From: an uncultured Acidobacteriota bacterium
Lineage (GTDB): Bacteria > Acidobacteriota > JAQAZP01
Assembly: GCA_963836075.1 (NCBI GenBank)
Contig: CAWIIB010000009.1
Location: 2,208,311 to 2,272,310 of the forward strand
Direction of reading: 5' to 3'
DNA: 64,000 nt
This document shows positions 288 through 57,100 of the stretch, one piece after another. The translations under genes were made by a program, and so were the position numbers. Each line of letters opens with the position of its first letter. The first letter of the stretch is position 1. Under the pieces are notes generated by a model. It was given only the letters and a program-made list of their open reading frames with translations. It had not been told where the DNA came from and ran no database searches.

Positions 288-1881
288 ATGCACATGGAGA
301 AGAGAAACTTGTATGCCGCCGGTATGATACGCTCTGCGGCGGCGGTCCTGCTGCTGATGGTCTCGGCCCTGCTCTTTCCGGCCGCGGCGACCGCGCAGGA
401 CGGGGAAGGCACGCTGGAGCTCACACTCCGGGACTGCATCGAAATCGCCCTGCAGAACAACATGGACATCGAAGTGGGCCGCTACAACCCGCAGATCTCC
501 TTCACGGCCATTGACCAGGCCTGGGGCACCTTCGACCCCGCGATCTACATCCAGGGCCGCAACACCGAGGAGGACCGGCTCTCCTACTTCGGTTACGAAG
601 TGCAGGGAACAGAGGCCTCGCGCTGGCTGGCCACCGGGTATGACCAGACCTTCACCCCGGGCACCAACATCAGCTTCGACTTCTTCCTGCGCAGCAACAC
701 CTCCGAGGAGGAGTTTCTCGGCGAGGCCTCCTCGTCCGACTCCTGGCTCGCCGACGCCCAGTTCACCGTGACCCAGCCCCTGCTGCGCAACTTCGGCCGG
801 GACCTGAACAAGCGGAACATCTACATCGCCCAGAACAATCTCGACATCTCCAACGAGATGTTCCGCGGCGAGGTGATCGATGTCCTGAACAACGTGCAGT
901 CCGCGTACTGGAACCTCAAATACACCATCGGCTGGCTCGGGGTGGAGCAGCAGTCGCTCAAGCGGGCCCAGGACCTCTACGACCTGAACAAGGTCAAGGT
1001 GGAGGTGGGCGCCCTGCCGCCCATCGAGATCACCACCGCCGAGGCGGAGGTGGCGGCGCGGCAGGTGGCGATCATCGTCGCCGAGAACGATGTCCGGGAG
1101 GCCAAGGACGCCTTGCGCAAAATACTCAACCTGCCGGCGGAGCTTTCCGACTGGGAGCGGGACGTGATCCCGGTGGACAACGCTGATTTCGACCCGGTGG
1201 ACGATCGACTGGCAGCGGGAGGTGGAACTGGCCTTCACCAACCGCCCCGACCTGATCCAGGCCCGCCTCGACCTGAAGAACAAGCTGATCGACATCGACT
1301 TCCGCGAGAACCAGATCAAGCCGGACCTCAGCCTCGAGGCCGGGTACGGTCAGGCCGGCCTGGATCAGGACCGCTACGACCAGGGAACCGGCGAGCTATT
1401 GTACAATGCCAGCCTCGGCGAGGCCCTGAAGGGGATGGTGGACGGCGACCTGATGGACTGGCACGTGGGCGCCACCTTCTCCATGCCGCTGCGCAACCGC
1501 ACGGCCAAGGCCAATTTCGCCGCGGCCAAGCTGGAGAAGACCAGGGCCGAGCTCTCGCTGCAGCGCCTGGAGCAGGATGTGATCGTGGAGGTCCGTTTCG
1601 CCATCCGGACCCTGTTGAGTTCTGCCGAACAGGTGGCGGCCTCGAAGATATCGGTCCGGCTGGCCGAAGAAAAGCTGGCCGCCGAGGGAAAGAAATTCGA
1701 AAACGGCCTGAGCACCAGCTACAATGTGGTGCTGATGCAGGAGGACCTGGTGCAGCAGCAAGCCGGGTATGCCCGAGCGCTGCTCGACTTCAAGAAGGCC
1801 GAGTACGGCCTCGAGGCGGCCAAGGGCACACTGCTGGAATACCTCGGCGTGGAGATGGCATCCACCACCGAAGACGAGTAG
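288..1881 (+). CDS. TolC-family outer membrane efflux protein, interrupted by a +1 frameshift near 1186-1215 (N-part in frame of 108..; C-part = ORF 1222..1881)
   Basis: Signal peptide MHMEKRNLYAAGMIRSAAAVLLLMVSALLFPAAATAQ, TolC-like repeats (LRDCIEIALQNNMDIEVGRY ; ...REVELAFTNRPDLIQARLDL...); frames join as DPVDDRL | EVELAFTNRPDL; RBS GAGGTGAGG before ATG 288. Confidence 0.75.
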
Positions 1882-1901
1882 TCTGGGGATACGGTCACAG
1901 C

Positions 1902-2582
1902 ATGCTGATCAGTATCGAATCCCTGGCCAAGCACTACCAGCTGGGCTCCACCCGGGTGGAGGCCCTGCGCGGCCTCGACCTGGCGGTGGAGGCCGGGGAA
2001 TACCTGGCCATCATGGGCCCCTCCGGTTCGGGCAAGTCGACACTGATGAACCTCATCGGCTGTCTCGACACTCCCACCCGCGGCTCATACCGGCTGGAAG
2101 GGAGCGAGATTTCCTCCCTTGACGACCGGCAGCTGGCCGCCATCCGCAATCGCAAAATCGGTTTCATCTTCCAGACCTTCAACCTGCTGCCGCGGATGAG
2201 CGCCCTGCACAACGTGGAGCTGCCCCTGGTCTACCGCGGCCTGCCCCCGGCCCAGCGCCGCAAGGCGGCCACCGCAGCGCTGCAGGCGGTGGGTCTGGCC
2301 GACCGGGCCGCGCACCGGCCCAGCGAACTGTCCGGCGGCCAGCGCCAGCGCACCGCCATCGCCCGCGCCCTGGTGATCAGTCCCTCCCTGCTGTTGGCCG
2401 ACGAGCCCACCGGCAACCTGGACAGCGTCACCGGCGGCGAGATTCTCGATCTCTTTGACCGGCTGAATCGCGACGGTCAAACGGTGATCCTGGTGACCCA
2501 TGAGAACGAGGTGGCCTCCCGGGCCCGCCGCCGGGTGGTGCTCCGGGACGGCCGGATCCGCTCCGACGAGCGCGCCGCCTGA
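1902..2582 (+). CDS. ABC transporter ATP-binding protein (MacB/LolD/FtsE-like ATPase), no cognate permease adjacent
   Basis: Walker A GPSGSGKST, Q-loop, signature LSGGQRQRTAIARAL, Walker B LLLADEPTGNLD, H-loop VTHE; 226 aa. Confidence 0.9.
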   Translation: MLISIESLAKHYQLGSTRVEALRGLDLAVEAGEYLAIMGPSGSGKSTLMNLIGCLDTPTRGSYRLEGSEISSLDDRQLAAIRNRKIGFIFQTFNLLPRMSALHNVELPLVYRGLPPAQRRKAATAALQAVGLADRAAHRPSELSGGQRQRTAIARALVISPSLLLADEPTGNLDSVTGGEILDLFDRLNRDGQTVILVTHENEVASRARRRVVLRDGRIRSDERAA

Positions 2583-6761: not shown

Positions 6762-8057
6762 ATGAAGACCTTTCGCATTTCTCTTATCGCACTGATTCTT
6801 TTGGGCTTTGCCCTGGGGTTTCAGGCTGCTCCCGAACTGTACGCCGACTACAAGGAAGCGGTGCAGAAGTACCAGCAGGGGCAGTATGTGGAAGCTGCGG
6901 CCGCTTTCCGGGCCGAGGTCGAGGCGTTCCCCAACTGGTGGTTTGTCCAGTATTACCTCGGGAAGTGTAATCTCAAGCTGGAAAAATACGACCAGGCGCT
7001 GATCGAGTACAACAAGGCCAAGGGCCTGGCCAAGGAGGATCAGGAGGTTTTTGCCACCGGTTACGACATCGCCCAGGTTTACTACAAGCAGAACAAGCTT
7101 TCCGCCTCCCTCGATGCGCTGAAGGCGGTGGAAGGGGCGGCAAAGCAGGACGCCGAAAAGAAATCGCTCTACAACCTGATGGGCAACATCTATTACAGCC
7201 AGAAGAAGTACGGTGATGCGGTGCCGGTGATGGAACGGAGCGCCGCGGTGGAGGCTGATGCCAGTCTGCTGTTCAAGATCGGCTACAGCTACTACAGCCT
7301 CGGCGAGTACGAAAAGGCCTACCAGAAGCTGAACCAGGCGGTGAGCAAGGAATCGAAGAACACCAGTGCCCGCTACTGGATGGGTGTGACCGCCCTGACC
7401 CTGGGACGGACCTCCACCGACAAGGCTAAGAAGAATGAGTGGTACACCAAGGCGGTGACCCAGGGCGAACAGCTGACCCGGATGAAGCCGGGCAACATCA
7501 AGTACATCTCCCTCACCGGCCAGGCCTACCTGGGGGCCAAGCAATACGACAACGCCATCGCCCAGTTCAACAAGGCCCTGCAGTCCGACCCCGGGGACTG
7601 CAAGAGCCAGCACAACCTGGCCAACGCTTTGCTGGGCAAGAAGAGCTATGGTGATGCCGAGGCGGCCTTCCTCAAGGTGATCAAGTGCAAGCCCGACGAC
7701 GCGTCGGCGTACAATGCGCTGGGTTTCATCTACGAACAGATCTCCAAGGACTTTGCCAAGAAGGCCGAGAAGGATGCCGCGAAATACAGCGAGGCGATCA
7801 GGAACTGCGACCTGGCCCTGGCCAACTACGAAAAGTCACGGCAGAAGAAGTCCAGCTCGGCGGTATCCTCGTCCATCACACGGGTTCAGGGCAACCGTGA
7901 CATCTACGCCGAGAACATGTCCACCGACGCCGAGAACAGGCGCATCGCCGAGGAGAACGCCGAGGCCGAGCAGTACAACGAGCAGCTGGTTGACGAGTTC
8001 GGTGAGGATGAAGTGCTCGAGGCCGGTGAAGAGCTTCCCGACCCGGACGAGGAATAG
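6762..8057 (+). CDS. Tetratricopeptide-repeat protein with signal peptide and acidic C-terminal tail
   Basis: MKTFRISLIALILLGFALGFQA signal; multiple TPR-like 34-aa units (YYLGKCNLKLEKYDQALIEYNKA...); C-term EDEVLEAGEELPDPDEE; ORF track start 6576 is upstream extension. Confidence 0.75.
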   Translation: MKTFRISLIALILLGFALGFQAAPELYADYKEAVQKYQQGQYVEAAAAFRAEVEAFPNWWFVQYYLGKCNLKLEKYDQALIEYNKAKGLAKEDQEVFATGYDIAQVYYKQNKLSASLDALKAVEGAAKQDAEKKSLYNLMGNIYYSQKKYGDAVPVMERSAAVEADASLLFKIGYSYYSLGEYEKAYQKLNQAVSKESKNTSARYWMGVTALTLGRTSTDKAKKNEWYTKAVTQGEQLTRMKPGNIKYISLTGQAYLGAKQYDNAIAQFNKALQSDPGDCKSQHNLANALLGKKSYGDAEAAFLKVIKCKPDDASAYNALGFIYEQISKDFAKKAEKDAAKYSEAIRNCDLALANYEKSRQKKSSSAVSSSITRVQGNRDIYAENMSTDAENRRIAEENAEAEQYNEQLVDEFGEDEVLEAGEELPDPDEE

Positions 8058-8162
8058 CAACGGAGATCTTCATCTGCCGAGTTGAAGTAGCGGTCAGCAA
8101 ACACCGTCCTTAACGGGGCGGCGTTTTACTGTGCGATGACGGAAGAAACGCGGCAGTTGTCG

Positions 8163-9338
8163 CTATTTCTGTACGACCCGGCGGATCAGTGCGCGGTACT
8201 GCTCCTCGATCCGTTCCCAGGCGTAGGTCTCGTGGCAGTAAGCTTTGCCGCTCTCTCCCAGGGCGCGGCAGAGGTCGTCGTCCTTGATCAGCAGTTCCAT
8301 GGCGTAGAGGAACTCGTCGAAGCTGCTGTACCACAGCCCTCCATTGGCCCGGGTCGCCTGCCCGCGCAGCACGTCGCAGCGGCCGTTGACCAGCGACGGG
8401 GTTCCCATGGTCCAGGCCTCCAGCACCACCATGCAGAGGCTCTCGTAGAACGAAGGCATCAGCAGGAACCGACTGCCGGCCAGCGCCGAGAACTTCTCCT
8501 CCTCGGAGACGAAGCCGAAGTGCCGGATCCCCGGGTGGCGGGGGATCTCCATCACCGGTTTGCCGATCACCACCAGGGGCGGGCAGCCCGGGCGCTCGCC
8601 GGCGTAGCGCATGTAGTGGGCGAACATCTGCCGGCAGCCCTTGTTCTCGTCCACCCGTCCCAGGTAGAGGATGTAGCCGTTTTCCGGGAGATCGTGTTTC
8701 CGATGAAACAGGCTGCGGTCCACCGCCCCCGGCCAGGTATCCAGCCCGCCGATCACGTCCCCGGGGACCTCGCGGTTGCCGGAGATCGATTCGATCAACT
8801 CCTTCTCCTCCGGGGTGAGGTAGACGATGCCGCCGGGCAGGCGGAAGAAGTCGCGGAAGATCTCCAGGTCGATCACCGGGTCATGTTCGGCAGTGGGGAC
8901 CAGAATTGCCTTGTGCGCCACCTGCGGCAGGCCGTGGTAGGTGATGTAGTAGCGGTAGGAGAAGAAGATGAACAGGTCATGCTCCTGCTGGTGTTTGTGG
9001 ATGTGCTGGATCAGAGCCGGGCTGTACGGGCCTTCTTCCTCCAGCCACTTCAGTTCCTGGCGCCGGGTGTGCGGGTTGTTGAGGATGAACTCCTGGATCT
9101 TGCCGAACCGTTTGGGGTTTCGCGGGCGGGCCACCGGGAAGCGTCGCACCGGGATGCCGTTGACCGACTCCAACCCCGGTTTCAGCTGGTTGGCCCAGGT
9201 GACATAGTCCACGGCGCAGGTGGTGAGCACCTCCACTTCGTGCTCCCGGGACAGGCGTTCGGCCACCCGGCGACAGAGCATCTCGGCGCCGCCGGCGATG
9301 GTTTCGCCGTAGCGCTGGATAATAAAGGCGATTTTCAT
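8163..9338 (-). CDS. Glycosyltransferase family 1 (GT4-type, GT-B fold)
   Basis: 391 aa; MKIAFIIQRYGETIAGGAE N-term, C-terminal E..E motif region (FLLMPSFYESLCMVVLEAWTMGTPSLV). Confidence 0.85.
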   Translation of the reverse strand: MKIAFIIQRYGETIAGGAEMLCRRVAERLSREHEVEVLTTCAVDYVTWANQLKPGLESVNGIPVRRFPVARPRNPKRFGKIQEFILNNPHTRRQELKWLEEEGPYSPALIQHIHKHQQEHDLFIFFSYRYYITYHGLPQVAHKAILVPTAEHDPVIDLEIFRDFFRLPGGIVYLTPEEKELIESISGNREVPGDVIGGLDTWPGAVDRSLFHRKHDLPENGYILYLGRVDENKGCRQMFAHYMRYAGERPGCPPLVVIGKPVMEIPRHPGIRHFGFVSEEEKFSALAGSRFLLMPSFYESLCMVVLEAWTMGTPSLVNGRCDVLRGQATRANGGLWYSSFDEFLYAMELLIKDDDLCRALGESGKAYCHETYAWERIEEQYRALIRRVVQK

Positions 9339-9859: not shown

Positions 9860-9873
9860 GGTCCGGTCATCCG

Positions 9874-11076: not shown

Positions 11077-11096
11077 TCCGGTGTCCTGAAGTTTTT

Positions 11097-12079: not shown

Positions 12080-12084
12080 GACCA

Positions 12085-15647: not shown

Positions 15648-17207
15648 GTGGCAACGATCACCATCAACGGACAGCAGGTTGAAGTGGCCAACGACGCCAC
15701 GATCATGAAGGCGGCGGAGAAGCTCGGGGTCTACATCCCCCATTTCTGCTACCACCCCGGCCTGTCCATCGCCGGCAACTGCCGGATGTGCCTGGTGGAG
15801 GTGGAAGGTGCGCCCAAACTGCTGGCCTCCTGCTGCTCACCGGTGCGTGACGGCATGGTGGTGCTGACCGAATCGGAGAAGGTGGTCAAGGCCCGCAAGG
15901 GAATCATGGAGTTCCTGCTGATCAACCACCCGCTGGACTGCCCGATCTGCGACCAGGCCGGCGAGTGCGTGCTGCAGGACTACAGCTACGACTACGGCGA
16001 CGGCCACAGCCGCTACAGCGAAGAGCGGCAGCGGCACGAGCGGGAAAATGTCGGCAGCACCATGGTGCGCGACATGAACCGCTGTATCGCCTGCACCCGC
16101 TGTGTGAGGTTCTTCCAGGAAGTCACCGGCGAAGACGAATACAACGTATACCTGCGGGGCGGGCACACCGAGGTGGGCACCTATGGCGACCACGAGATCG
16201 GCACCAAATTCATCGGCAACGCCGCCGAGATCTGTCCGGTGGGGGCGCTGACCCTGCGTGATTCCCGTTTCAAGTGCCGGCAGTGGCTCTTCGAACAGGC
16301 CGAATCGGTTTGCCCCTATTGCGCCAACGGCTGCCGTATCGAGATCGACTACCACAAGGACGTGCTGCACCGCTTCCGCAGCCGACCCGACCCGGAGAAG
16401 GACCGCTGGTGGATTTGCGACGAGGGCCGCTTCGGCTTCCACCGCCTCAACGACCGGGAAGCGCGGCTGAGCAAGCCGATGATCCGCCGCGACGGCACGT
16501 TGGTGGAAGTGAGTTGGGACGGAGCCTTCGCCTACATCGCCCAGCGGCTGAAGACCCTGGCCGCCGCCGACGCCACGACCCTGGCCGTCGGCTCGGGCCA
16601 CTGCTCCAACGAGGACAACTACGCGCTGAAGCGTTTTGCCAACCAGTGCCTGAACACCGACGCGGTGCGCTTCAAGTCATGGCCGCCGCCCTGGGTCACA
16701 CCCGGCGAGAAGGACCCGAAGGACCTGTTCATCGAGCCGGACAAGTCGGCCAACGGCACCGGCGCCCGCCGCCTGGGCCTGGAGCCCGACCCGGGCCTGG
16801 CCAAAACCTGGGACGAGCTGGCCGCCGGCGCCTTCCAGGTACTCTACGTCATGGGCGCCGACCTGCTGCGCGGCGACCCGGACAATCCCCGGGACCCCAA
16901 GGTGCTGGACAAACTGGGCCTGGTGGTGGTCCAGGACGTGTTCCGCAGCCCCACCACTGAGCTGGCCCACGTGGTGCTGCCGGCCCTGGCCTTCAGCGAG
17001 CGGCACGGCACCTACACCAACTGCCACGGCGAGGCCCAGGAATTCTTTGCCGGGCCGCACCCCTCGGGCAGCACGGCGATGGCCGACTGGGAGATCATCG
17101 CCCGGCTGGGCACCCACCTGGGGGACAGTTCCCCTGGACCGGGTTCCGCGAACTGCCCTGGCGCGAGGATTACAACGAGAGCGCGTAACAAGCGCGGACG
17201 GACCTAG
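15648..17207 (+). CDS. nuoG: NADH-quinone oxidoreductase subunit G (75 kDa, short form); probable 1-nt indel near 17113-17117 changes the last ~25 codons (alternative natural-looking end at 17189)
   Basis: 2Fe-2S CRMCLVEV, HPLDCPICDQAGEC, CIACTRCVRF clusters; alternative frame after CTGGGGG reads GQFPWTGFRELPWREDYNESA* instead of DSSPGPGSANCPGARITTRARNKRGRT*. Confidence 0.85.
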   Translation: MATITINGQQVEVANDATIMKAAEKLGVYIPHFCYHPGLSIAGNCRMCLVEVEGAPKLLASCCSPVRDGMVVLTESEKVVKARKGIMEFLLINHPLDCPICDQAGECVLQDYSYDYGDGHSRYSEERQRHERENVGSTMVRDMNRCIACTRCVRFFQEVTGEDEYNVYLRGGHTEVGTYGDHEIGTKFIGNAAEICPVGALTLRDSRFKCRQWLFEQAESVCPYCANGCRIEIDYHKDVLHRFRSRPDPEKDRWWICDEGRFGFHRLNDREARLSKPMIRRDGTLVEVSWDGAFAYIAQRLKTLAAADATTLAVGSGHCSNEDNYALKRFANQCLNTDAVRFKSWPPPWVTPGEKDPKDLFIEPDKSANGTGARRLGLEPDPGLAKTWDELAAGAFQVLYVMGADLLRGDPDNPRDPKVLDKLGLVVVQDVFRSPTTELAHVVLPALAFSERHGTYTNCHGEAQEFFAGPHPSGSTAMADWEIIARLGTHLGDSSPGPGSANCPGARITTRARNKRGRT

Positions 17208-19672: not shown

Positions 19673-21707
19673 ATGTCACTGGAACTGATCATCCTGATTC
19701 CGTTAGCACCGCTGATCGGCTTTCTGATCAACGGCCTGCTGGGCCCGAAACTGCCCAAAAAACTGGTCAGCTTCATCGGCTGCGCGGCGGTGGGCGTCTC
19801 CCTGGTGGTGGCCATCCTCGCCTTCTCCACCCTGAGCGGGATGGAGGTGCGCCACTTCGAGCACGACTACTTCATGTGGATCGAGTCGCCGTCGGCCGAC
19901 TCGGGGGTGGTCAGCGACTACCGCGTCTCCATCCCCTTCGGCCTGCAGCTCGACCCGCTGTCCATGGTGATGGTGCTGGTGGTCACCGGGGTGGGCTTCC
20001 TGATCCACGTCTACTCCGTCGGCTACATGTGGCACGAGCGCGGCTATGCCCGCTACTTCTCCTTCCTCAACCTCTTCACCTTTGCCATGCTGATCCTGGT
20101 GCTGGCCAACAACTTCTTCCTGCTCTTTGTGGGCTGGGAGGGGGTGGGGCTCTGTTCGTATCTTTTGATCGGCTTCTTCTACGAGAAGCACTCGGCGGCC
20201 AAGGCGGGGATGAAGGCCTTCGTGGTCAACCGTATCGGTGACGTGGGCTTCGTCCTCGGCGCCTTCCTGGTCTTCCTTGTCTTCGGCACCCTTGATTTTT
20301 CCGAGGTGATGATGCTGGCCAGCCAGCCCGGCGCCGTTACCGCCGGCGCCGGCGTGATCACCCTCATGGCCCTGTTGCTCTTTGTCGGCGCCACCGGCAA
20401 GTCGGCACAGATCCCGCTCTATGTCTGGCTGCCCGACGCCATGGAGGGCCCCACACCGGTCAGCGCCCTGATCCATGCCGCCACCATGGTCACCGCCGGT
20501 GTCTACATGGTGGTGCGCTGCAACGTGCTCTTCGCCCTGGCTCCCGACGCCATGCTGGTCGTGGCGGTGATCGGCGGGATGACCGCCATCTTTGCCGCCA
20601 CCATCGGCCTGGTGCAGAACGACATCAAGCGGGTGCTGGCCTACTCCACGGTGAGCCAGCTGGGCTACATGTTCCTGGCCCTCGGCGTGGGCGCTTTCAC
20701 CGCCGGGATCTTCCACCTGATGACCCACGCCTTCTTCAAGGCGCTGCTCTTCCTCGGGGCCGGGCTCGGTGATCCACGCCATGAGCGGCGAGCAGGACAT
20801 CCGCAAGATGGGCAACCTCAAGGGCAAGATCCCCGTCACCTACTGGACGTTCCTCATCGCCTCGCTGGCCATCGCCGGTATCCCGCCGTTGTCCGGCTTC
20901 TTCTCCAAGGACGAGATCCTCTGGAAAACCTTCAGCACGGGACACACCATTCTCTGGGGTATGGGCTTCCTGACTGCCGGGATGACCGCCTTCTACATGT
21001 TCCGCCTGGTCTTCCTCACCTTCCACGGGGAAAGCCGGATGGACAAGGAAACAGAATCTCACGTGCACGAGTCGCCGAGGTCGATGACCGTGCCCCTGAT
21101 GACCCTTTGTCTGCTGGCCATTATCGGCGGCTGGATCGGCATCCCCCACGCCATCACCAACATCACTCACTTCCCCGCGGCCAACTACTTCGAGGAGTGG
21201 CTCGAGCCGGTGGTGGGGTGGAGCGGGGAGCAGCTGGCCGGTGGCCACGCGGATGCGGCCCACGCCGAGGTGCCCCACGGTGCAGAGCATGCTGCCGCCG
21301 GCCACGGCCACCATGCCGTGGACCCGATGGAATACGTGCTGATGGGCCTCTCGGTGCTCATCGCCCTCTCCGGCATCCTGCTGGCCGCGGCCTGGTATCG
21401 CAGGAAGAACGACACTCCGGCGAAACTGGCCGGGGTGCTGGACGGCGGCCCGTACCGCACACTGCTCAACAAATACTGGGTGGACGAGCTCTACGACCTG
21501 ACCGTCGTGCAGCGCTTCATCTGGTTCGGCAACTTCCTCTGGAAGTTTATCGACGTGATCGTCATCGACGGGACGGTGAACGCCGTGGCCCACATCAGCC
21601 GCTTCTTCGGCATCGTGGGATCGCGGTTCCAGACCGGCTACGTCAGAAACTACGCGCTGGGGATCGTTCTCGGCGTGGTGATCCTGATCTGGGCCTGCTT
21701 GTTTTAA
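19673..21707 (+). CDS. nuoL: NADH-quinone oxidoreductase subunit L; single-nt frameshift near 20760-20770 splits it between two frames
   Basis: N-part (19673-~20766) ...[13 protein letters not shown] then C-part (ORF 20769..21707) [18 protein letters not shown]...; removing one base in GGGGCCGGGC restores [17 protein letters not shown], the canonical NuoL sequence. Confidence 0.85.
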
Positions 21708-26645: not shown

Positions 26646-29600
26646 ATGAAGCTCGCATCCATCGGATCTGTTCTGCTCTTCCTGCTCACCGCTGTCCCGC
26701 AGTTGACGCACGCCACAAGGCTTTTCGACACGAGGATCGACCATTTCGTCGGTGCTTACCCGTTCGCCATCGACAGCAGCGATCTTGACGGTGACGGGCA
26801 CCTCGACCTGGTGGTGGCCCTCCACGGCTCGGACGGCATCTCCGTTCTTCTCGGCCTGGGGAACGGTGAATTCAGACCCGCCGTGCCATATGTGACCGAC
26901 GACAATCCCACGTCCGTGGCTGCCGCCGATTTCAACGGTGACGGTCACCCGGATGTGGCGGTGGCCAACCGGTATGGGCACAACATGTCCGTCCTCCTGG
27001 GCCAGGGGGACGGTATCCTGTCGCCGCCGGAGCACTACACCACCGGGTCCTCGCCCGAAGCTGTGATCGTCTCCGACCTTGACGGCGACACGGTGCCCGA
27101 CCTGGCCGTGGCCTGCCATTCGAGCCACGCGGTGTCAATCCTGCTCGGCAACGGGGACGGGAGCTTCCAGGCCGAGGTCCGCTACGACACCGGCTGGTAT
27201 CCCATCGATCTCGCCGTGGGGGACGTCAACGGTGACGGTGTGCCGGATCTGGCCACGGCCAGTTCGGCAGACCGCAGCGTGTCCATCCTCCCTGGCGCCG
27301 GCGATGGTTCCTTCGGGCCGCCCCAGGCCATCGAGATCGCCCAGGGCGTTTACGCCCTCGCCCTCGGTGATCTCGATGGGGACGACGTGCCCGACCTGGC
27401 CATCACAACGCACGTTTCGAGCACGAATTCGGGCGAGATCCAGATCTGGCTGAACACCGGTGGCGGCGCGTTCCAATGGAACCAGGAATGGGCGCACGGC
27501 GTCTTGCTCTACGACACCGTCATCGAGGACCTGGACGGCGACGGCTATCGGGATCTGGCGGTCACCGACATCGGATTCGCAAATGCTGAAGGCCGGGTCA
27601 CGGTGTACGCCGGCCGCGGTGACGGCACCGTGGAAGCGGCCTTAGGTCGATCATATTGGGCCGGCCTGTCCACCAATGCCGTCCACCCCGCCGATATCGA
27701 CGGCGACGGCCGTCTGGACCTGGCCGTATCGAACGCCACCAGCAGCGACATCTCCGTACTGCTGGGCAGAGCTGACGGCGCCTTCCACACCGCCCCGACG
27801 TACGGCGCGGGGTATGGCCCGAGGACCTCGGCCATTGCCGACCTCAACGGCGACAGCGTTCCCGACATCGCCGTTTCGTCATATGCCAACGGGCTCATCA
27901 AGATCCTGATCGGCGAGGGGGACGGCACCTTCCTGCCTGCCGGCCAGGTCACCGGGGCCGGCGGAAAACCGTCGGCCATCGTTGCCGACGACCTGAACGG
28001 CGACGGCATTTCCGACCTGGCCTTCACCACCCCGCTGGACGACAGCTGCTCAGTGACATTGGGCAATGGAGATGGAACGTTCCAGCCGGCGACGGACTTC
28101 GGAACCGGGGGATATCCCGACGCAATGGTGATCAGTGACCTGAACAACGACACCATCCCGGACCTGGCCGCAGCCAACATGGCCAGCGACTCGATCTCGG
28201 TGCTCCTCGGTGCGGGGGACGGCAGCTTTCTTCCGGCGCTCCACGCCGGCGCCGGTGCCGAACCGGCCGGCCTGGCCGCCGGGGACCTGGATGGCGACGG
28301 GGCCACCGACCTCGCGGTTACCAGTTCCACCGGGCATGACGTCTCCGTGCTGATCGGCAACGGTGATGGCACATTCCGGACGGCGGTGGGCTACGCGACC
28401 AGCCAGACCCCGGCCGGTGTGGCCATTGCCGATCTCAACGGCGACGGCCACCCGGACCTGGCGGTGGCCTGCCAGAACAGCAACAGGACATCGGTGCTCC
28501 TCGGCCACGGCGACGGTACCTTCCGGGAGGCGGTCGATCACTACACGCCCCACGGCCCGATATCGGTGACCGCCACCGACCTCGACCTCGACGGCTCGCT
28601 CGATCTGGTGCTGGCCTGCACAGTACGGTTCACCGTCGCCGTCCTCCGGGGACAGGGTGACGGCTCATTCATGGAAGCCGAACAGTACCGGCGTCGGGTT
28701 TCATCCGTACCATGTCTCCGCCGGCGACCTGGACCGGGACGGCCACCCGGACCTGGTGGCGGTGAACCGGTACAGCCATGATGTCTCGGTGTTGATCAAC
28801 GCCGGGAGCCCGGGGATGCTGGTGACCGGCCCTGGTCCGGGATTGGCGAACGAACCGCTGGTCAGGGTCTTCCCGCCGGTGGAGAACGCATTTCACGTTT
28901 CCGCGTTTCAGGCATATGGCGCCCCCCACTTTGGCGTGGGCGTGGCGGCCGGTGATCCAGACGGCGACGGCATCGACGTCATCATCACCGGCGCCGGCCC
29001 GGGGGCGGTTTTTGGCCCCCACATCCGCGCATTCATGGTCGACGGCACACCGGACCCCGGCATCAACTTCCTGGCCTACGGCACCAACAAGTTCGGCGTC
29101 AATGTGGCCGCCGGCGACCTGGATGGCGACGGGATCGACGAGATCGTCACCGGCGCCGGCCCGGGGGCTGTGTTCGGGCCCCACGTCCGGGGCTGGAACG
29201 TGGATGGCGGTACGGCCACGGCCATGCCCGGGGTCAGCTACTTCGCCTACGGCACGCTGAAACACGGGGTCAACGTGGCGGCCGGCGACCTGGACGGCGA
29301 CGGTTACGATGAGATCATCACCGGCGCCGGCCCGGGGGCGGTGTTCGGGCCCCATGTCCGGGGCTGGAACGTCGACGGCGGCACGGCCGCGGCCATGTCC
29401 GGGGTCAGTTTCCTGGCCTACGGCACCAACAGGTGGGGGGTCAACGTGGGTACCGGCGACATCGACGGGGACGGCATCGACGAGATCCTCACCGCGCCCG
29501 GTCCCTCGGCCCTCTTCGCCTCGCACATCCGGGGCTGGAATGCGGATGGCAGTTCCGCCACACCGCTGGCCGGCTGCAGCTTCCTCGCCTGGTCGGCAGC

Positions 29601-41574: not shown

Positions 41575-41625
41575 CAATGAAAAAGACCGCCGATATTCGG
41601 CTGAGATTTATTGAACTGGAGGGAT

Positions 41626-42994
41626 ATCGTGAGAGTTTTCTTATTCTGCGTTGTGTTGGTTTTGACACCCGCCGTGATGTGCCTTGCCCAAACTCCAGTC
41701 ATGCAGTTGGTTCCCGCCGGGGAGTACCGAGATGGGGGACCACCTGGGAACGGGATATTACCAGGAACTCCCTGTTCATGCGGTGTACATAGACGCGTTC
41801 TACATGGACACATTCGAGGTGGCCAACGAGGGGTACGGCACCTACTTGAACTCGGCCTACAGCCAGGGATTGATCGAGGTATCCGGGGGCGTGGTGTACA
41901 AGAACAACGACACCGAAGCGTACTGCTCAACAACCTCTGCACCTCCGGGCGTTCCTTTCTTTGGCGAGTCCAGCCGTATTTCCTGGAACGGAAGCACCTT
42001 TGCGGCCACCGCGGGCAAGAAGGAGCACCCCATGGTGCTGGTGAGCTGGTGGGGGGCTGCGGCGTACGCGAATTGGCGAAGCGAGCAGGAAGGACTGACG
42101 CCCTGTTACAACCTGGCAACCTGGGAGTGCGACTTCGGTGCGGACGGATACCGGCTGCCCACGGAAGCGGAGTGGGAGAAGGCGTCCCGGGGCGGTGAGC
42201 ACACACCTTATTACGATTATCCCTGGGGCAATAGCATTGATGGGTCAAAGGCGAACTACTATGATTCCGGTGATCCGTATGAGACGGGTGCCTTCCCTCA
42301 CACAACACCGCAGGGGTATTACGACGGCAACCAGATCCCTTCCGGCGTAGATATGGCCAACGGGTACGGCCTGTACGACATGTCGGGAAGCGTATGGGAG
42401 TGGTGCAATGATTGGTACGATGATCAATATTACCAGGCCTGCGTGGACTACGGGATATACGACAACCCGACAGGACCTCCGTATAGCCCTTATGGCTATC
42501 GTGTGTATCGCGGCGGTTCGTGGTTCAGCTATGGGATCAACCTGCGTTGCTCGGTCCGCGAAAGAAACTACCCCATCATTCTGCCCGAAATTGTCGGGTT
42601 CCGACTGGTCCGGGGTGCATCAAACAGTACCGTAGCTGCTGACCTGACCTGCGATCCCTCATCCGGCACGCTCCCGTTCTCCACGGTAATGACGACAACG
42701 CTGAGCAATCTATACACTGAACAGAGCCGCCGCATCTCCGGCCACATCGACGTCACTTTGGCCAACGACCAGTTCATCGCCAACTGGCGTGCCGGTTACA
42801 CCAACGTGGCCGCAGGCGGAAGTTACGTCACGACCTGGAATCAGACCATCCCGGCCTATGGGAGTGTGGTCGGTGAAAACGTCTTCCAGCTCCTGGCCCA
42901 GGACGTCACACCGCCACCATTCAACCAACCGCCCTACCCACCGGCGGGGGCCACGGCCACGGCCACCTGCACCGTGACGGGGATAGCACCCTGA
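41626..42994 (+). CDS. Secreted formylglycine-generating-enzyme (FGE/SUMF1) sulfatase-modifying-domain protein with C-terminal CTVTG-type domain; +1 frameshift near 41720-41730
   Basis: Signal peptide (M)RVFLFCVVLVLTPAVMCLAQT in frame of ORF 41611; FGE domain (YRLPTEAEWEKASRGG, GLYDMSGSVWEWCNDWY, YRVYRGGSWFS) in ORF 41684 frame; frames join as LVPAGEY | EMGDHLGTGYY (delete one C in TACC); CTD 42643-42994. Confidence 0.75.
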
Positions 42995-50676: not shown

Positions 50677-50699
50677 CCTCAGACCAGGGAGCTGACGCC

Positions 50700-51641
50700 G
50701 TGCGGAAGGAAGAGCCCCCAGCCAACCGTGAAAAGGTTTCGATCATCGGCGGCGGCCGGGTGGGCAAGACCCTCGGTTTTCTGCTGGCCCGGGCAGGGTA
50801 TCGCATCCGCGGAGTCTCCTGTCTCAACCTGGCCGAGGCCGAGGAGGCGGTGCGCTTCATCGGCGACGGCGCCCCCTTCGAAGACAATACCGCGGTGGTG
50901 ATGGACAGCGTCATCGTGCTGATCACCACTCCCGACGACGCCATCGCCTCGGTGGCCCGTGGGCTGGCCGGGATACCGGTCTCCTGGACGTCGAGACTGG
51001 TGCTCCACTGCAGCGGGTTTCTCACCTCCGGGGTGCTCCGGCCGCTGGCCGACCAGGGCGCTGCCGTGGCCACCCTCCACCCGCTGCAGACCATTGCCAG
51101 CCCCCGCGAGGCGGTGACCGCGATCCGCACAGGTTTCTTCTCCATCGAAGGAGATGAGGACGCGTGGCCCACGGTACAGGCCATGGTGAGCCATATCGGG
51201 GCGCGTTACCTGATGATCGACCCGCAGAAAAAGGTGCTCTACCACGCCGCGGCGGTGATGGCCTCCAATTACGTTGTCACCCTCACCGGCCTCTGTGCCG
51301 ATCTGATGGCCGAAGCCGGGGTGCCCCGGGAGCAGGGTCTGGAAGCGCTGACTCCCCTGGTCCAGGGTGCGCTGGACAATGTCAAGCGACTGGGACACCG
51401 CCGTTCGCTCACCGGCCCGATCTCCCGGGGGGATGTGGCCACGGTGCGCGGCCACCTGGAGGGACTGGCCCGCGGCGGCCGGACCACCGATGCGGTTTAC
51501 CGTTCCCTGGGCCTGGCCACCCTCGAACTGGCTTTGGGCGGTCGGGGCGGTCCCTCCCTGGACCGGGCCTGGGAGCTTCGCGAGGCGCTGAAGAACAGCG
51601 ACGATGATCAGGGGGTTGTGGGTGGCGACGAATACGAGTAA
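50700..51641 (+). CDS. Rossmann-fold NAD(P)-binding protein, DUF2520-type (ketopantoate-reductase/ProC-like superfamily)
   Basis: KVSIIGGGRVGKTLGFLLARAG dinucleotide fold; C-terminal helical DUF2520-like region; GTG start. Confidence 0.55.
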   Translation: MRKEEPPANREKVSIIGGGRVGKTLGFLLARAGYRIRGVSCLNLAEAEEAVRFIGDGAPFEDNTAVVMDSVIVLITTPDDAIASVARGLAGIPVSWTSRLVLHCSGFLTSGVLRPLADQGAAVATLHPLQTIASPREAVTAIRTGFFSIEGDEDAWPTVQAMVSHIGARYLMIDPQKKVLYHAAAVMASNYVVTLTGLCADLMAEAGVPREQGLEALTPLVQGALDNVKRLGHRRSLTGPISRGDVATVRGHLEGLARGGRTTDAVYRSLGLATLELALGGRGGPSLDRAWELREALKNSDDDQGVVGGDEYE

Positions 51642-51677
51642 CCGAGACCTGGAGCAGCAATCCGGAGGTTTGTTCTG

Positions 51678-53138
51678 ATGCGCAAGATAGTGCTCACCGC
51701 CAGCCTGGTGTTCTTCCTCTTCATTTCCTGCGGCCATGTCGGCTCGGAGAGCGGGGGAGAAGGCGCGGTGTTGCTGGAACCGGCTTCGGCGTCCGTCCAG
51801 GGCCCCGTGACCGGCGGATCGGTCCCGGGCCGTCTGGAGGCCGGTTCGGCCCTGCAGGCTTCCCGGCGCACCGCGGTTGTGGAGGTGGTGGAGCGGGTGG
51901 CGCCGGCGGTGGTCAACATCTCCACCGAACAGGCGGTGGAGGTGAACCCCTTCCTGCGGCGGCAGACGCCGAGCATCTTCGACTGGTTTGGCGAACCGGA
52001 CCGCAGTTACACCCGGACCAGCCTCGGTTCGGGGGTGATCATCGACGACCAGGGGCACGTGCTGACCAACCAGCACGTGATCCTCAAGGGCTCGCGGATC
52101 ACCGTGGTGCTCTCCGACAAGCGGGAGTTCGAGGCCGAACTGGTGGGCGCCGACCCGACCCTGGACCTGGCCGTGCTGAAGATCGACACTGGAAACTCGC
52201 TGCCCCACGTGCCCATGGGCACCTCCTCCGACCTGATGATCGGCGAGTCGGTGATCGCCATCGGCAACCCCTTCGGGCTCAATCACACCGTAACCACCGG
52301 GGTGGTCAGCGCCACCGGTCGGATTCTGCGAACCGAGGAGAGGGTCTACCGTGATTTCATCCAGACCGATGCCTCGATCAACCCCGGCAACAGCGGCGGA
52401 CCACTGCTCAACATCAACGGTTCGCTGATCGGTATCAACACGGCCATCTATGGCGGAAGCGCCCAGAACATCGGCTTCACCATCCCCATCGACCGGGCGC
52501 GGCGCATCGTTGACGACCTGATCCGCTTCGGCGCCGTGGTGCCGGCCTGGCTGGGGGTGGATGTCCAGGACCTGAGCCGTGATTTGGCCGAGAGCTTTGA
52601 TTTCCCCCTGCGCAGCGGGGTGCTGGTCTCCGAGGTGGCGGAGGAGGGTCCGGCCGAGGCCGGCGGTCTCCAGCGGGGCGACATCATCACCGCCCTGGGC
52701 AGCGACAGCGTCCAGACGGCGCGGGACTTCCGGGAAAGCCTCCGCGGCTACACGGCCGATGACGAGGTAAAAGTGACGTACTACCGCGGTGGGGAGAAGA
52801 GAGAAGGCATGCTGCTCAGCACCGAATTCCCCGCCGGACAGGTGGACCAGGAACTGTGGCGCCGGGTGGGCTTCGAGGTGATCGAGATCACTCCGGCCCT
52901 GGCCCGCAGCTACAAACTGCCGGCCACGGACGGGGTGGCCATCCGCCGGGTCCGCGACAACAGCCCGGCATATGCCATCGGCCTCGACGGCGGTGACGTG
53001 CTGCTGCACATCGACGGCACGCACATCGGCAGCCTGGAGAATCTGCACCATGCGCTGGTGCCCGCCCTGGGCCGCGGCTCCTTCACGCTGATGGTCCAGC
53101 GGGGACGACACCGCTATCGGGGGGTGCTGGAGTTTTGA
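51678..53138 (+). CDS. DegP/HtrA-family periplasmic serine endoprotease (trypsin domain + 2 PDZ)
   Basis: Catalytic H (LTNQHVI), D (DLAVLKI), S (GNSGGPLLN); two PDZ-like segments; signal peptide; GGAGG RBS. Confidence 0.9.
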   Translation: MRKIVLTASLVFFLFISCGHVGSESGGEGAVLLEPASASVQGPVTGGSVPGRLEAGSALQASRRTAVVEVVERVAPAVVNISTEQAVEVNPFLRRQTPSIFDWFGEPDRSYTRTSLGSGVIIDDQGHVLTNQHVILKGSRITVVLSDKREFEAELVGADPTLDLAVLKIDTGNSLPHVPMGTSSDLMIGESVIAIGNPFGLNHTVTTGVVSATGRILRTEERVYRDFIQTDASINPGNSGGPLLNINGSLIGINTAIYGGSAQNIGFTIPIDRARRIVDDLIRFGAVVPAWLGVDVQDLSRDLAESFDFPLRSGVLVSEVAEEGPAEAGGLQRGDIITALGSDSVQTARDFRESLRGYTADDEVKVTYYRGGEKREGMLLSTEFPAGQVDQELWRRVGFEVIEITPALARSYKLPATDGVAIRRVRDNSPAYAIGLDGGDVLLHIDGTHIGSLENLHHALVPALGRGSFTLMVQRGRHRYRGVLEF

Positions 53139-53169
53139 CTGTCCCTCTTCTAGCCCAGAGGATGTGAGC

Positions 53170-53556
53170 ATGCCTTTCTCAATCGATACGTTCGAGCACC
53201 TGGACTTGACCGTCATCACTGCAGATGGAGAGATCATGCCTGGAGAGCCGCTGGAGACGATCAGGGCTTTCTATGGTGGCAGGCCGACAAGGTATGCGAT
53301 CTGGGATTTCAGGGCCGTTGCCATGAGCCAGATGTCCACTGATGAGATCCAGCTGATCCTTGATCACGGGTTGAAGAATATCCTCAAGCGACAGTTCGGC
53401 AAGACGGCTCTGGTGGCCCCGGGGGATCATGACTTCGAACTGGCCCGCAACACCAGCACCATCGGCGATTTGAAGGACGTCCCCTGGGAAATGCAGGCTT
53501 TCCGGACGATGGAGGAAGCGGCCCGGTGGATTGGCGTCCAGTATCCTGAAGAATAG
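53170..53556 (+). CDS. Small STAS/SpoIIAA-like (DUF3478-like) protein, paralog 1
   Basis: ~128 aa MPFSIDTFEHLDLTVITADGEI...WDFRAV...GKTALVAP...; tandem paralog of next gene; AGAGGA RBS. Confidence 0.45.
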   Translation: MPFSIDTFEHLDLTVITADGEIMPGEPLETIRAFYGGRPTRYAIWDFRAVAMSQMSTDEIQLILDHGLKNILKRQFGKTALVAPGDHDFELARNTSTIGDLKDVPWEMQAFRTMEEAARWIGVQYPEE

Positions 53557-53651
53557 GCGCCGACCCGTTGCTGTGACGCTCACCAGTGGCCCGGAAACAG
53601 GAAAGACACTATATTCAGTAGAGCATGCACCTGCTGCAGGGGGAGGTTGAC

Positions 53652-54038
53652 ATGCCAATCTCGATCGAACAGTACAAGGATCAGGATCTGACCGTCATCG
53701 TTGCGGCTGGAGACATCCTGGACGGTGAGCCGTTTGCGGCACAGAGGGACTTCTATGACGGTGAGCCGACGGCCAAGGTTCTCTGGGATTTCAGGGCCGT
53801 ATCCGGAGGACAGCTCAGCGCTGACGAAATCAGGCAGATCTTCGACTACGCCATTGTGAACATGCCCAAGCGCCAAAGCGGCAAGACGGCCTTTGTGGCT
53901 CCGGAAGACCACGAGTTCGGCCTGGCCCGCATGACCACCACCATCGGCGAACTGAGAGATGTCCCCTGGGAACTGCGGGCCTTCAGGAATCTAGCAGACG
54001 CCGTCCGGTGGCTCGGCGTCCAATACGTTCAGGAATAG
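53652..54038 (+). CDS. Small STAS/SpoIIAA-like (DUF3478-like) protein, paralog 2
   Basis: ~128 aa MPISIEQYKDQDLTVIVAAGDI...WDFRAV...GKTAFVAP...AVRWLGVQY; ~45% identity to paralog 1; GGGAGG RBS. Confidence 0.45.
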   Translation: MPISIEQYKDQDLTVIVAAGDILDGEPFAAQRDFYDGEPTAKVLWDFRAVSGGQLSADEIRQIFDYAIVNMPKRQSGKTAFVAPEDHEFGLARMTTTIGELRDVPWELRAFRNLADAVRWLGVQYVQE

Positions 54039-54106
54039 TAGTTCCACACAGGCCGTTTCCCCGGCCTGGTAATTTCCAGAGCGGGAGCTCCAAGGAGAAA
54101 TACGTC

Positions 54107-57100
54107 ATGGACATCCGCGGTACGTCTCTTCTTTGCTTCGCACTATTGATATCTGCTTCGTTCCCGCCACAACGGCCGGGCCACTGCTGTTCAACACGAG
54201 GGTCGAATTCCCGGTGGGTATCTTTCCTTCCTGCGTTGCCCTGGCCGACCTGGATGGTGATGGCCGCCAGGACCTGGCCGTGCCGAACCTGGTCAGCGAC
54301 GACGTCTCGGTGCTGCTGGGCAACGGTGACGGCACCTTTCAGGAGGCGGTGAACTACGGGGTGGATGATTCCCCTCTTGCGGTGGCCATCGGTGACCTGG
54401 ACGCGGACAGCCATCCGGACCTGGCGGTGGTGAACTATACCGACGGACTGGTCTCAGTGCTGCTGGGCCGGGGCGACGGCACTTTCGAGAACGCGGTGAA
54501 CTACGAGAGCGCCCACTCGGCCAACTCGGTGGCCATCGGCGATCTGGACGGGGATGGCCATCCGGACCTGGCGGTGGCCAACGGCGGTTTCCAGGCGGTT
54601 GCGGTTCTACTGGGCAATGGCGACGGCACCTTTCAGAGCAGGGTGAACTACAGCGCCGGTCTGGGGCCGGCATCGGTGGTCATCGGTGACCTGGACAACG
54701 ACGGTATCCCGGACCTGGCGGCGGCGAATTCCAGCCTCGACTCGGTTGCGGTGCTGCTGGGCAACGGGGACGGCACCTTCCAGACCCGTGTCCTCCACGA
54801 GACCGGGGACAGCCCGGTGGCGGTGGCCATCGTCGACCTGGAGAACGACAACTTCAAAGATCTGGTGACGGCGAGTAGAATCGGTAACAACATCTCGGTG
54901 CTGGCGGGCAACGGGGACGGCACCTTCCAGGCTGCGGTGAACTACCCGGCCGGGGACGATCCCGAAGCGCTTGCCGTCGGTGACGTGAATGACGACGGCC
55001 AGGCGGATGTGGTGGTTGCCAATCTGTCCAGCTCTGACGTCTCCATACTGCAGGGCAACGGGGATGGCACATTGCAGGTTGCCCGGCAATTCCCCATCGG
55101 CCGGGCCCCCGTTTCGGTGGCCATCGGCGACCTGGACGGCGACGGAAACCAGGACCTGACCGCGGCGACTTCCAGCTACAACTATGTCACGGTTCTGCGG
55201 GGATACGGGGACGGCACCTTTGCCACCGCAGCTGAATACGGTGTCGGCGGTCTCCCTCAATCAGTGGCCGCGGGCGAGCTGGATGGTGACGGGCGTGTGG
55301 ACCTGGTGGTGGCCAACCCCGACGAGGGCACCGTCTCGGTGCTTGCCGGCCAGGGGAACGGCAGTTTCGGCTCCGCGGTACAGCACGGTGCCGGTGCCGG
55401 GGCCTGGTCGGTGGCCATCGTCGACCTCGATGGCAACGGCAACCCGGACCTGGTCACGGCGAACTACAACGGTGACGACGTCTCGGTGTTGATGAACACG
55501 GGTGGCGGCGCCTTCGCCGCACCCGTGAATTACGGGGCCGGCAGCGGCCCATTCTCGGTGGCCGGCGATGACTTTGACAATGATGGCCACCAGGACCTGG
55601 TGGTGGCGAATTACTACGACAACAACGTGTCGGTGTTGCTGGGCAACGGTGACGGCTCCCTTCAGACGGCAAGTGACTTCGCGGTTCAGGCTTTTCCCAC
55701 GGCGGTGGTCACCGGAGACCTGAATAAAGACGGTGACCCGGACCTGGCCGTGGCCAACACGCTCGGCGACTCTGTTTCGGTACTTCTGGGTCTCGGGGAC
55801 GGCGCCTTCCAGGCGGCCGTAAACTACGGTGCAGGGAACAACCCGTATTCGCTGGCCCTCAATGACCTCGATGGCGATGGCGCCCTGGACCTGGCCGTGG
55901 CCAATAACGGCAGCGATTCCGTATCGCTGTTGCTGGGCCAGGGCGACGGCACCTTGCAGTCCGCGGTGTACTATGACACCGGCGTCGGGCCTGTCTCGGT
56001 GGCCATGGCCGACCTGGACGGCGACGGCCGGCTGGATCTGGCCGTGGCCAACCTCGACAGCGACAATGTGTCGGTGTTCCCGGGCCTGGGGGACGGCACT
56101 CTGGGGACCGCGGTGCTCTATGGTTGCGGTGAAGATCCCATCTCCATGGTGTCGGGCAACCTGAACGGTGATGGCTATCCGGACCTGGTCACGGCGGACC
56201 AGGACCAGGAGACGGTAACGGTGCTGATCAACGGCACCAGTATCTCGTCCCTTTCATCGCTCTATGTCGGTCCGGGCCCGGCCTACGACAACAGCCCCCT
56301 GGTCCGGCTGTTCCCGCCGTTGCAGGACGCAGCGGCCCAGTCCGAGTTCCCGGCATACGGCGCAACTCATTACGGCGTCAAGGTGAACAGCGGTGACCCG
56401 GACGGTGACGGAGCGGACGAGATCCTCACTGGTGCTGGTCCGGGTGACATCTACGGGCCCCACGTCCGGGGGTTCGAGGTGGACGGCACGCCCGTTCCCG
56501 GGCTCAATTTCCTGGCCTACGGCACGAACAAATACGGCGTGAATGTCGCCGCCGGCGACTTCGACGGCGACGGTTTCGACGAGATCATCACCGGTGCCGG
56601 TCCGGGTGCGGTGTTCGGGCCTCACGTGCGCGGCTGGACTTACAACGGCGGGTCAGGGGTCACTTCATTGCCCGGGGTGAGCTACTTTGCCTACGGCACG
56701 CCAAAGTGGGGAGTGAACGTGGCCGGCGGTGATATCGATGGCGACGGCTTTGACGAGATCGTCACCGGCGCCGGTCCGGGTGCGGTGTACGGCCCCCATG
56801 TGCGCGGCTGGAACGTGGACGGCGGTGCGGCGGCAGCCATACCAGCGGTGAGCTACTTCGCTTACGGCACACTGAAGTTCGGGGTCAATGTCAGCTGCGG
56901 CGATGTGGATGGCGACGGTATTGACGAGATCGTCACCGGCGCCGGTCCGGGTGCGGTGTTCGGGCCCCACGTGCGCGGCTGGAACTATGACGGGTCCGCG
57001 GTCACTTCGCTGCCCGGCTTCAGTTTCTTTGCCTGGCAGACCGAACCGCTCCGCTTCGGGGTCAATGTCTTTGCCGGAACCGACCTGGATGCCGACGGCC

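Follow-up and report, generated by a model that had tools for sequence, protein, structure and literature searches.

Pseudogenes abound in genomes at an early stage of reductive evolution, among them those of Shigella, Yersinia pestis, Sodalis and Mycobacterium leprae. Many of their genes are frameshifted and transposases lie nearby, and the lesions are mixed, single genes are hit several times, selection is relaxed and essential functions are spared. Programmed +1 frameshifting is exemplified by prfB, at CUU-UGA-C, and by the yeast elements Ty1 and Ty3, at rare arginine codons. Gene-fragmenting consensus indels were also reportedly described in long-read assemblies by Watson and Warr in 2019. 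The fragmentation of gene calls by long-read consensus indels is well documented (Sereika et al., 2022, PMC9262707; Kastor, PMC12007338; Polypolish, PMC8812927). The bacterial and MAG assemblies treated in these reports resemble the locus described here, in that single-base indels split intact conserved genes and truncated or fused calls arise within a very long contig.

The window (the whole 64-kb stretch of DNA analysed here) contains six conserved, otherwise intact genes, each of which is interrupted by a single extra or missing base. Judging from sequence comparison, these breaks are probably (at about 0.8) recent, artefactual single-base consensus errors of a long-read assembly and not biology. 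The genes and their lesions are as follows.

288..1881, + strand, TolC-family outer-membrane efflux gene, split over two frames (Pfam OEP, intact homologues)
1199..1204, + strand, TolC lesion, one extra base at 1202/1203 (DNA alignment with relatives L161 and L162; deletion scan)
15648..17188, + strand, nuoG (Pfam, comparison with relative L001)
17124..17134, + strand, nuoG lesion, one base missing (GACAGTT-CCCC), an unpaired 1-nt gap against L001
19673..21707, + strand, nuoL, split in mid-gene between LFLGAG and SVIHAMSGEQD (Pfam; NuoL of L001 intact)
20762..20765, + strand, nuoL lesion, one extra base (GGGC; GGT in L001), an unpaired 1-nt gap against L001
26583..29817, + strand, FG-GAP/VCBS repeat protein 1, FG-GAP 1 (Pfam FG-GAP_3 and FG-GAP on either side of the break)
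28688..28689, + strand, FG-GAP 1 lesion, an extra C (GTAC[C]GG) where FG-GAP_3 is split
41611..42994, + strand, formylglycine-generating-enzyme (FGE) family gene (Pfam, homologues, public gene call)
41727..41728, + strand, FGE lesion, an extra C (GTAC[C]GA) (repair compared with homologues)
54107..57255, + strand, FG-GAP/VCBS repeat protein 2, FG-GAP 2 (Pfam; start-site and frame analysis)
54135..54166, + strand, interval of the FG-GAP 2 lesion, one base missing (frame change from signal peptide to body)

Each affected gene carries exactly one lesion of exactly 1 nt, both halves retain full homology, and Pfam models run seamlessly through every repaired junction. Insertions account for four of the six lesions (TolC, ~1202; nuoL, 20762-20765; FG-GAP 1, 28688/9; FGE, 41727/8) and deletions for the other two (nuoG, 17124-17134; FG-GAP 2, 54135-54166). 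With about 51 genes in the window, ~12% are affected, at a density of ~1 lesion per 10 kb of coding sequence; two of the lesions lie in the complex I genes nuoG and nuoL, and constrained genes are thus not spared. A self-trained codon-usage Viterbi scan detected the breaks in TolC, nuoG, nuoL and FG-GAP 1 and gave only a hint at FGE; because it also confused the strands in a number of G+C-rich regions, Pfam and NCBIfam were used to complete the census. Further apparent breaks (9876; 50.7-53.2 kb; 57260-58693/58715-59146; 53164/53625) proved to be normal gene junctions or spurious antisense ORFs. The Pfam/NCBIfam census found no nonsense mutation among the roughly 51 genes, the sole in-frame stop being the predicted selenocysteine codon of PrxU described below, and Rfam and tRNA scans of the window gave no matches.

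In TolC, Pfam OEP matches over model positions 2-187 in 288-1209 and again over 6-187 in 1222-1881, the frames of the N- and C-terminal repeats differing by +1, and the upstream frame as written extends to 2582, fusing with the frame of the next ABC ATPase. Two relatives read GTGGA-ATTGGAC and GTGGA-AGTCGAC where the window has GTGGACGATCGAC; since their DNA is one base shorter, the extra base is placed at 1202/1203. Removal of C1202, at a site outside any homopolymer, gave PVEIDW, the best match to relatives in the deletion scan; intact homologues of 522-579 aa (72-82% identity) read PVE(L/V)DW(Q/R)QE at the junction.

The two complex I lesions were located against L001. The nuoG ORF as written extends to 17207 with 31 foreign residues, and the true stop is inferred to be the TAA at 17186-17188. 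The window has GACAGTT-CCCC where L001 has GTCGATTATATC, and the alternative frame gives WTGFRELPWR, corresponding to WTGFREVPWR in L001; the frameshift touches only the last ~20 residues. For nuoL, the window reads GCCGGGCTCGG against GCC-GGTTCGG in L001, and the match to Pfam Proton_antipo_M is divided between two frames (1-220 and 222-294), becoming continuous over 1-294 (294.7 bits) after repair. The half of nuoL lying 3′ of the break has a dN/dS of 0.20, compared with 0.14 for the upstream half and 0.08-0.20 for nuoF, G, H and M; to the extent that such values can register an event (a very recent one is undetectable by them), the downstream half has evolved under purifying selection like the neighbouring nuo genes.

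Among the genes for secreted proteins, repaired FG-GAP 1 encodes 1077 aa, and its true start is likely that of an internal signal peptide beginning MKLASIG. Its FG-GAP_3 model is split at ~35 (1-35 in one frame, 34-60 in the other) and is recovered over 5-60 at 56.9 bits by the repair. In FGE, the signal peptide and first strand share one frame, and the remainder follows in the next. Repair yields MQLVPAGEYEMGDHLGTG, which agrees with homologues P0130-P0134, P0145 and P0156; the homologues carry (M)x(L/I)(V/I)PxGEYEMGDHLGTG in a single frame. The public gene call for this gene (P0121, 100% identical, on a contig of 3,516,849 bp) is truncated to 41732..42994, or 420 aa. FG-GAP 2 starts at an ATG at 54107, with AAGGAG 9 nt upstream, which opens a signal peptide, MDIRGTSLLCFALLISAS, in frame 2, while the body, starting PLLFNTRVEFPVG, is in frame 1, that is, in the -1 frame relative to the signal peptide. 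A signal peptide directly precedes the PLLFNTRVEFPVG motif in the paralogue FG-GAP 1 and in distant homologues. This lesion can be fitted, for one, by supposing that the C run at 54163-54165 shrank from 4 bases to 3.

The six frame breaks of the preliminary description, which had counted at least five, are thus all present in the sequence, at slightly refined coordinates. Its placing of the N- and C-parts of TolC in different frames is borne out by the split OEP repeats and by the relatives' DNA, and the 1-nt excess it saw in nuoL by the single uninterrupted Proton_antipo_M that repair produces. The extra bases of FG-GAP 1 and FGE are upheld at 28688/9 and 41727/8, where deletion of 1 nt rejoins the FG-GAP_3 repeat and restores the GEYEMGDHLG motif of homologues, respectively, and the possible N-terminal frameshift of FG-GAP 2 is substantiated by a signal peptide and body that lie in different frames. 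For nuoG, the native-looking C-terminus of the alternative frame stands, but the lesion adjoins the G5 run to which it had been assigned and is not inside it.

At every comparable site, relatives have one uninterrupted frame, both in L001 (~90% DNA identity) and among protein homologues. Over the ~17 kb that align with L001, unpaired 1-nt gaps within genes occur only at the nuoG and nuoL sites, where the ORFs of L001 are intact, and the relatives of TolC, FGE and the FG-GAP proteins are likewise in frame. The searches turned up no genome of this species: the genome scan came nearest with L001, followed by one at ~60% aa identity, the best match in the metagenome scan reached 59%, and public records contain no exact copy of the NuoH protein. 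Among TolC homologues, the highest identity is 82%.

The breaks had been described as all lying in short G/C runs. This holds in part: the lesions are located in runs of 1-5 bases, the four insertions in runs of 1-3, but the extra base of TolC is in no run, and with 62% G+C nearly any position in the window adjoins some short G/C run. About 150 (~152) runs of at least 5 bases lie inside genes without a frame break, as do 25 homopolymers of at least 6 bases, including a G8 in murJ. Published accounts of long-read artefacts emphasise long-homopolymer errors, mostly deletions for nanopore, whereas here insertions in runs of 1-3 make up four of six lesions and the long runs are undisturbed. The classic long-homopolymer pattern is not followed, which counts against an artefact, and homopolymer-length error is not supported as the specific mechanism. 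Sequence motifs offer a weak hint of a GTAC-linked error. The FG-GAP 1 and FGE sites have AGTACCG in common (P~0.06 by simulation) and GTACG lies near the FG-GAP 2 site. A systematic error linked to methylation or k-mers at GTAC was rejected, as AGTACG or its complement is found unbroken at 20 further places and nuoL has a GTACCG that is read in frame.

Programmed recoding, in which a ribosomal +1 shift at UAC-CGN in FG-GAP 1 and FGE and shifts elsewhere would yield full-length proteins from the sequence as written, is extremely improbable and close to refuted. As in prfB, Ty1 and Ty3, two window sites, both within AGUACCG, have an arginine codon (CGN) at the zero-frame A site and continue in +1. 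Unlike those systems, the sites are not conserved, no shift being present at the corresponding positions in L001, L161, L162 or the protein homologues; they are without a slippery P-site codon, have no slippery or hungry-codon motif or stimulatory element in common, and vary in sequence and direction, two requiring -1 and four +1. Moreover, nuoL contains a UAC-CGC, in frame at 21453, that is decoded normally, and about 6% of simulations produce the common 7-mer by chance. Quadruplet or programmed +1 decoding was set aside on account of the unshifted orthologues, the heterogeneous sites and this normally read UAC-CGC. Genuine and very recent frameshifts, by which the organism or its dominant strain would carry inactivated TolC, nuoL, FGE and FG-GAP genes, deserve more weight but are unlikely; such mutations could reflect early genome decay with insertion-sequence activity, or strain polymorphisms caught in the consensus. 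The deposited sequence does contain the lesions, spontaneous indels too prefer short runs, and avoidance of long homopolymers is atypical of nanopore errors. Two transposase genes (IS91-family, 24860-26248; rve, 29993-31012) and an orphan C-terminal-domain copy that has no start (33853-34314) imply that some real rearrangement has occurred, and this flux counts to some degree against an artefact; a search of the window for an att-like copy of the 3′ end of nuoN beside the 24.8-31.2 kb insert found none.

However, decay of the kind found in Shigella, Y. pestis, Sodalis or M. leprae leaves traces that are not seen here. Although about 12% of genes are affected, each is hit exactly once, with neither nonsense mutations nor multiply damaged genes to give a mixed lesion spectrum, and the relatives are all intact. 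The 3′ part of nuoL is under purifying and not relaxed selection, bearing in mind that a very recent event would be undetectable, and essential functions are not spared: nuoL, a core respiratory subunit, is disrupted in the middle of the gene, whereas 12 other nuo genes are flawless. Were the losses real, a free-living-type bacterium of a poorly sampled lineage would simultaneously be without complex I subunit L, TolC and several secreted proteins, in the first moments of IS-associated decay, or, in an exotic version, would express these genes by non-canonical +1 decoding at UAC-CGN; such a state seems quite improbable.

The relatives in frame, the single lesions, the signs of selection, the lack of nonsense mutations and the source contig together make artefactual indels the best explanation. 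A contig of 3,516,849 bp realistically needs long reads and so points to a long-read assembly; the window passes uninterrupted through two transposase genes and a pair of paralogous repeat genes. The earlier attribution to assembly indel errors is therefore retained on the evidence of relatives, single lesions, purifying selection and the 3.52-Mb contig, but not its homopolymer mechanism. Had HiFi reads been used, a density of ~1 error per 10 kb of coding sequence would far exceed what an artefact could explain. By the artefactual reading, residual 1-nt insertion or deletion errors would have remained in the long-read consensus, one per affected gene, with low coverage or imperfect polishing as a possible origin; the organism's actual genes would be intact and the lesions presumably absent from its DNA. 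Gene callers would then return split, truncated and fused products, with nuoL cut in two, TolC joined out of frame to the next gene, and FGE and FG-GAP 2 products devoid of signal peptides.

An in-frame stop of a different nature is present in a PrxU peroxiredoxin gene (33255-33851), where a TGA (33399-33401) occurs in DFTFV[TGA]PTE, at the position of the peroxidatic cysteine. The PrxU model (NCBIfam NF040737) matches on either side of it, over 35-80 and 82-232 of 233 positions, with 73.1 and 261.4 bits, the sum exceeding the cut-off of 270, and the TGA is a predicted selenocysteine codon. A candidate SECIS hairpin, AAC-U-GGCGGC-GGUC-GCCGCC-C-GUU, has its loop 20 nt past the UGA, with a folding energy no better than that of shuffled sequences; selA, selB, selC and selD were not found in the window. 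This TGA must not be "repaired" or labelled a pseudogene, which would be the opposite error to taking the frame breaks at face value.

The finding itself is ordinary, and its value is in annotation hygiene. The error is already public, FGE being recorded as a product of 420 aa from which the signal peptide and the first conserved strand are missing. If the breaks are taken at face value, complex I is scored as broken, TolC is fused to an ABC ATPase, and two large secreted proteins are mislocalised. Extrapolated to a genome of 3.5 Mb, a density of ~1 lesion per 10 kb of coding sequence would amount to roughly 300 breaks, a number that would distort estimates of completeness, metabolic reconstruction and pseudogene statistics.

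About 51 genes, with ~57 kb of coding sequence, could be delimited in the window (62% G+C), including two transposase genes, several genes for secreted beta-propeller, peptidase and FGE proteins, murJ, lepB, pseudopilins, degP, rtcB and archease. A 1462-aa protein had no family matches. Outside the six broken genes, Pfam and NCBIfam covered all sizeable ORFs completely. Tandem paralogous genes (53164-53556 and 53625-54038, +; ~130 aa each), both intact and without a family match, share the motif ...DLTVI.A.G(E/D)I...VAP(G/E)DH(D/E)F(E/G)LAR...WxGVQY. G+C-rich DNA typically yields long spurious or chimeric ORFs that are traps for naive ORF calling, and three occur here, listed below after the two main gene clusters:

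0.3-5.3 kb: efflux and TonB cluster
11.1-24.8 kb: complete nuoA-N operon
8136-9512 (+): spurious 458-aa antisense ORF over a glycosyltransferase
50679-53237 (-): spurious 852-aa antisense ORF over DUF2520 and degP
108-2582 (+): chimeric 824-aa ORF made of the TolC N-terminal part, out-of-frame sequence and an ABC ATPase

The six frame breaks listed in the preliminary description are real features of the sequence, each backed by homologues, Pfam continuity or the DNA of relatives, with coordinates and context slightly corrected; the census of the approximately 51 genes identified no additional frameshifts or nonsense mutations. The two OEP repeats of TolC are read in different frames, that of 288..1209 for the first and that of 1222..1881 for the second, and the unrepaired upstream frame, open to 2582, would fuse with the ABC ATPase gene. 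Searching with the repaired protein returned intact relatives (522-579 aa, 72-82% identity) that read ...DFxPVE(L/V)DW(Q/R)QE... across the junction. At the DNA level two of them have GTGGA-ATTGGACTGG and GTGGA-AGTCGACTGG where the window has GTGGACGATCGACTGG, and there is therefore one surplus base at 1202/1203; deletion of C1202 restores PVEIDW. One of these relatives, L162, matches window 1-12 kb in both the order and the lengths of its genes.

For the nuo genes, the comparison was with L001, one genome of the species collection, whose contig CBESOE010000038.1 aligns to 11023-24766 (90.6% identity) and additionally to 7202-10764. Gaps within genes were either compensating pairs a few bases apart or divergent stretches in and near a variable nuoL loop (21218-21310). 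Only two were unpaired single gaps, with the window lacking a base at ~17131 and carrying a surplus one at ~20762; NuoG (512 aa) and NuoL are both intact in L001. The nuoG lesion (within 17124-17134) changes only the last ~20 residues, the alternative frame ending ...LGDS?PWTGFRELPWREDYNESA before its stop, compared with ...LGVDYIWTGFREVPWRDERKED in L001. In nuoL, Pfam Proton_antipo_M matches model positions 1-220 before the break and 222-294 after it (224.4 + 54.7 bits), and 1-294 unbroken once repaired (294.7 bits).

Removal of one C from GTACCGG (28688/9) in FG-GAP 1 gives ...GDGSFMEAEQYGVGFHPYHVSAGDLDRDGHPDL..., the periodic unit of all its other repeats, and the FG-GAP_3 model, cut at ~35 as written, is matched from 5 to 60 across the repaired junction. 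Similarly, removing one C from GTACCGA (41727/8) in FGE makes EMGDHLGTGYYQELPVHAVYIDAFYMDTFEV continuous with the signal peptide and MQLVPAGEY; the homologues read (M)x(L/I)(V/I)PxGEYEMGDHLGTG in one frame. In FG-GAP 2, ATG 54107, preceded by AAGGAG at a spacing of 9 nt, encodes MDIRGTSLLCFALLISAS, and the repeat protein (PLLFNTRVEFPVG...) lies in the -1 frame. A signal peptide immediately precedes the PLLFNTRVEFPVG motif in the paralogue FG-GAP 1 and in distant homologues alike, and the missing base lies somewhere within 54135-54166.

The breaks are best read as consensus indels of the assembly (probability roughly 0.8). Four are 1-nt insertions and two 1-nt deletions, and each affected gene carries one lesion and is otherwise perfect. 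The spectrum is six frameshifts to no nonsense mutations, and constrained genes were not spared, with two of the six lesions in complex I, whose genes account for roughly one quarter of all coding sequence. Against L001, dN/dS is 0.20 downstream of the nuoL break and 0.14 upstream (0.08-0.20 for nuoF, G, H and M). The FGE search also returned P0121, a public truncated call (420 aa, 100% identical, starting MGDHLG...) equal to the ORF 41732..42994, from an NCBI/ENA contig of 3,516,849 bp, a near-chromosome size that points to long reads; the window is also unbroken across two transposase genes and a pair of paralogous repeat genes. Taken together, the single lesions, nuoL dN/dS, lack of sparing, 6:0 spectrum and P0121 contig point to lesions that are extremely recent or not present in the organism at all. 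Genuine recent mutations are an unlikely reading, although lesion density would argue for them if the data were HiFi; long-standing pseudogenes would show relaxed selection, several hits per gene and a mixture of lesion types, none of which is seen here. Programmed frameshifting, which would have a conserved site and a shared slippery motif, is highly improbable: the orthologues show no shift, and the sites differ from one another, with no slippery motif in common.

Indels that fragment gene calls are a recognised weakness of long-read assemblies, notably at low coverage (PMC9262707; PMC12007338; PMC8812927), and the window matches this standard picture, but with an atypical context distribution. 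The earlier attribution to assembly error stands as likely, whereas its homopolymer mechanism is unsupported: no frame is broken at any of the 25 within-gene runs of at least 6 bases (including G8 in murJ, C7 and G7) or of the about 152 of at least 5, the lesions themselves falling in runs of 1-5 bases. Nor do "short G/C runs" describe every site, since the TolC lesion is outside any homopolymer and that of nuoG adjoins a G5 run. The FG-GAP 1 (28684-28690) and FGE (41723-41729) lesions both read AGTAC[C]G, with the surplus C following GTAC, which could hint at a context-specific consensus error, but simulation gave no significance to this sharing (P~0.06). Every lesion can be expressed as one C gained or lost on the + strand.

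Similarity to L001 ends with nuoN (24766) and restarts at 31239-31294. In place of the intervening segment L001 has a different 2.2-kb insert, behind which ~100 nt of the nuoN 3′ end are repeated; in the window, the search for a flanking repeat found none. The region downstream of nuoN is apparently a hot spot for insertions.

24767-31238: 6.5-kb insert with an IS91-family transposase (24860-26248), FG-GAP 1 and an rve-family integrase (29993-31012)
38784-39164, 41119-41499, 42605-42994 and 33853-34314 (+), and 34830-35210 (-): copies of a C-terminal domain

This ~120-aa domain, running from LTCxPSSGTLPF to QPPYPPAG...CTVTG(I/V)AP-stop, ends four unrelated secreted proteins (SBBP propeller, FGE, BNR protein and M6 peptidase). 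It also occurs in L001 (~19256-19636) and at the N-terminus of the FGE homologue P0122, has no Pfam or NCBIfam match, and is possibly a sorting or anchoring domain specific to the lineage. The orphan copy at 33853-34314, directly after the stop of a peroxiredoxin gene, has one thrombospondin-type-3-like DxDxDG repeat in front and no ATG, GTG or TTG in its frame before 34009, and has the look of a genuine remnant of a gene's 3′ end.

The peroxiredoxin gene (33255-33851, +) holds the only in-frame stop in the census, a TGA (33399-33401) exactly at the peroxidatic cysteine (DFTFV-TGA-PTE). Its halves match NCBIfam PrxU (NF040737) at 35-80 and 82-232 of 233, and a GC-rich hairpin, GGCGGC-GGUC-GCCGCC, has its GGUC loop 20 nt downstream of the TGA. 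Peroxiredoxins with selenocysteine form a known family of bacterial selenoproteins (PMC1794560), and from its sequence this gene is probably a selenoprotein gene and not a pseudogene, the TGA probably reflecting recoding rather than damage. The frame breaks themselves offer no novelty. In practice, the six split genes should be taken as intact for functional inference, and the PrxU TGA should be left unrepaired.
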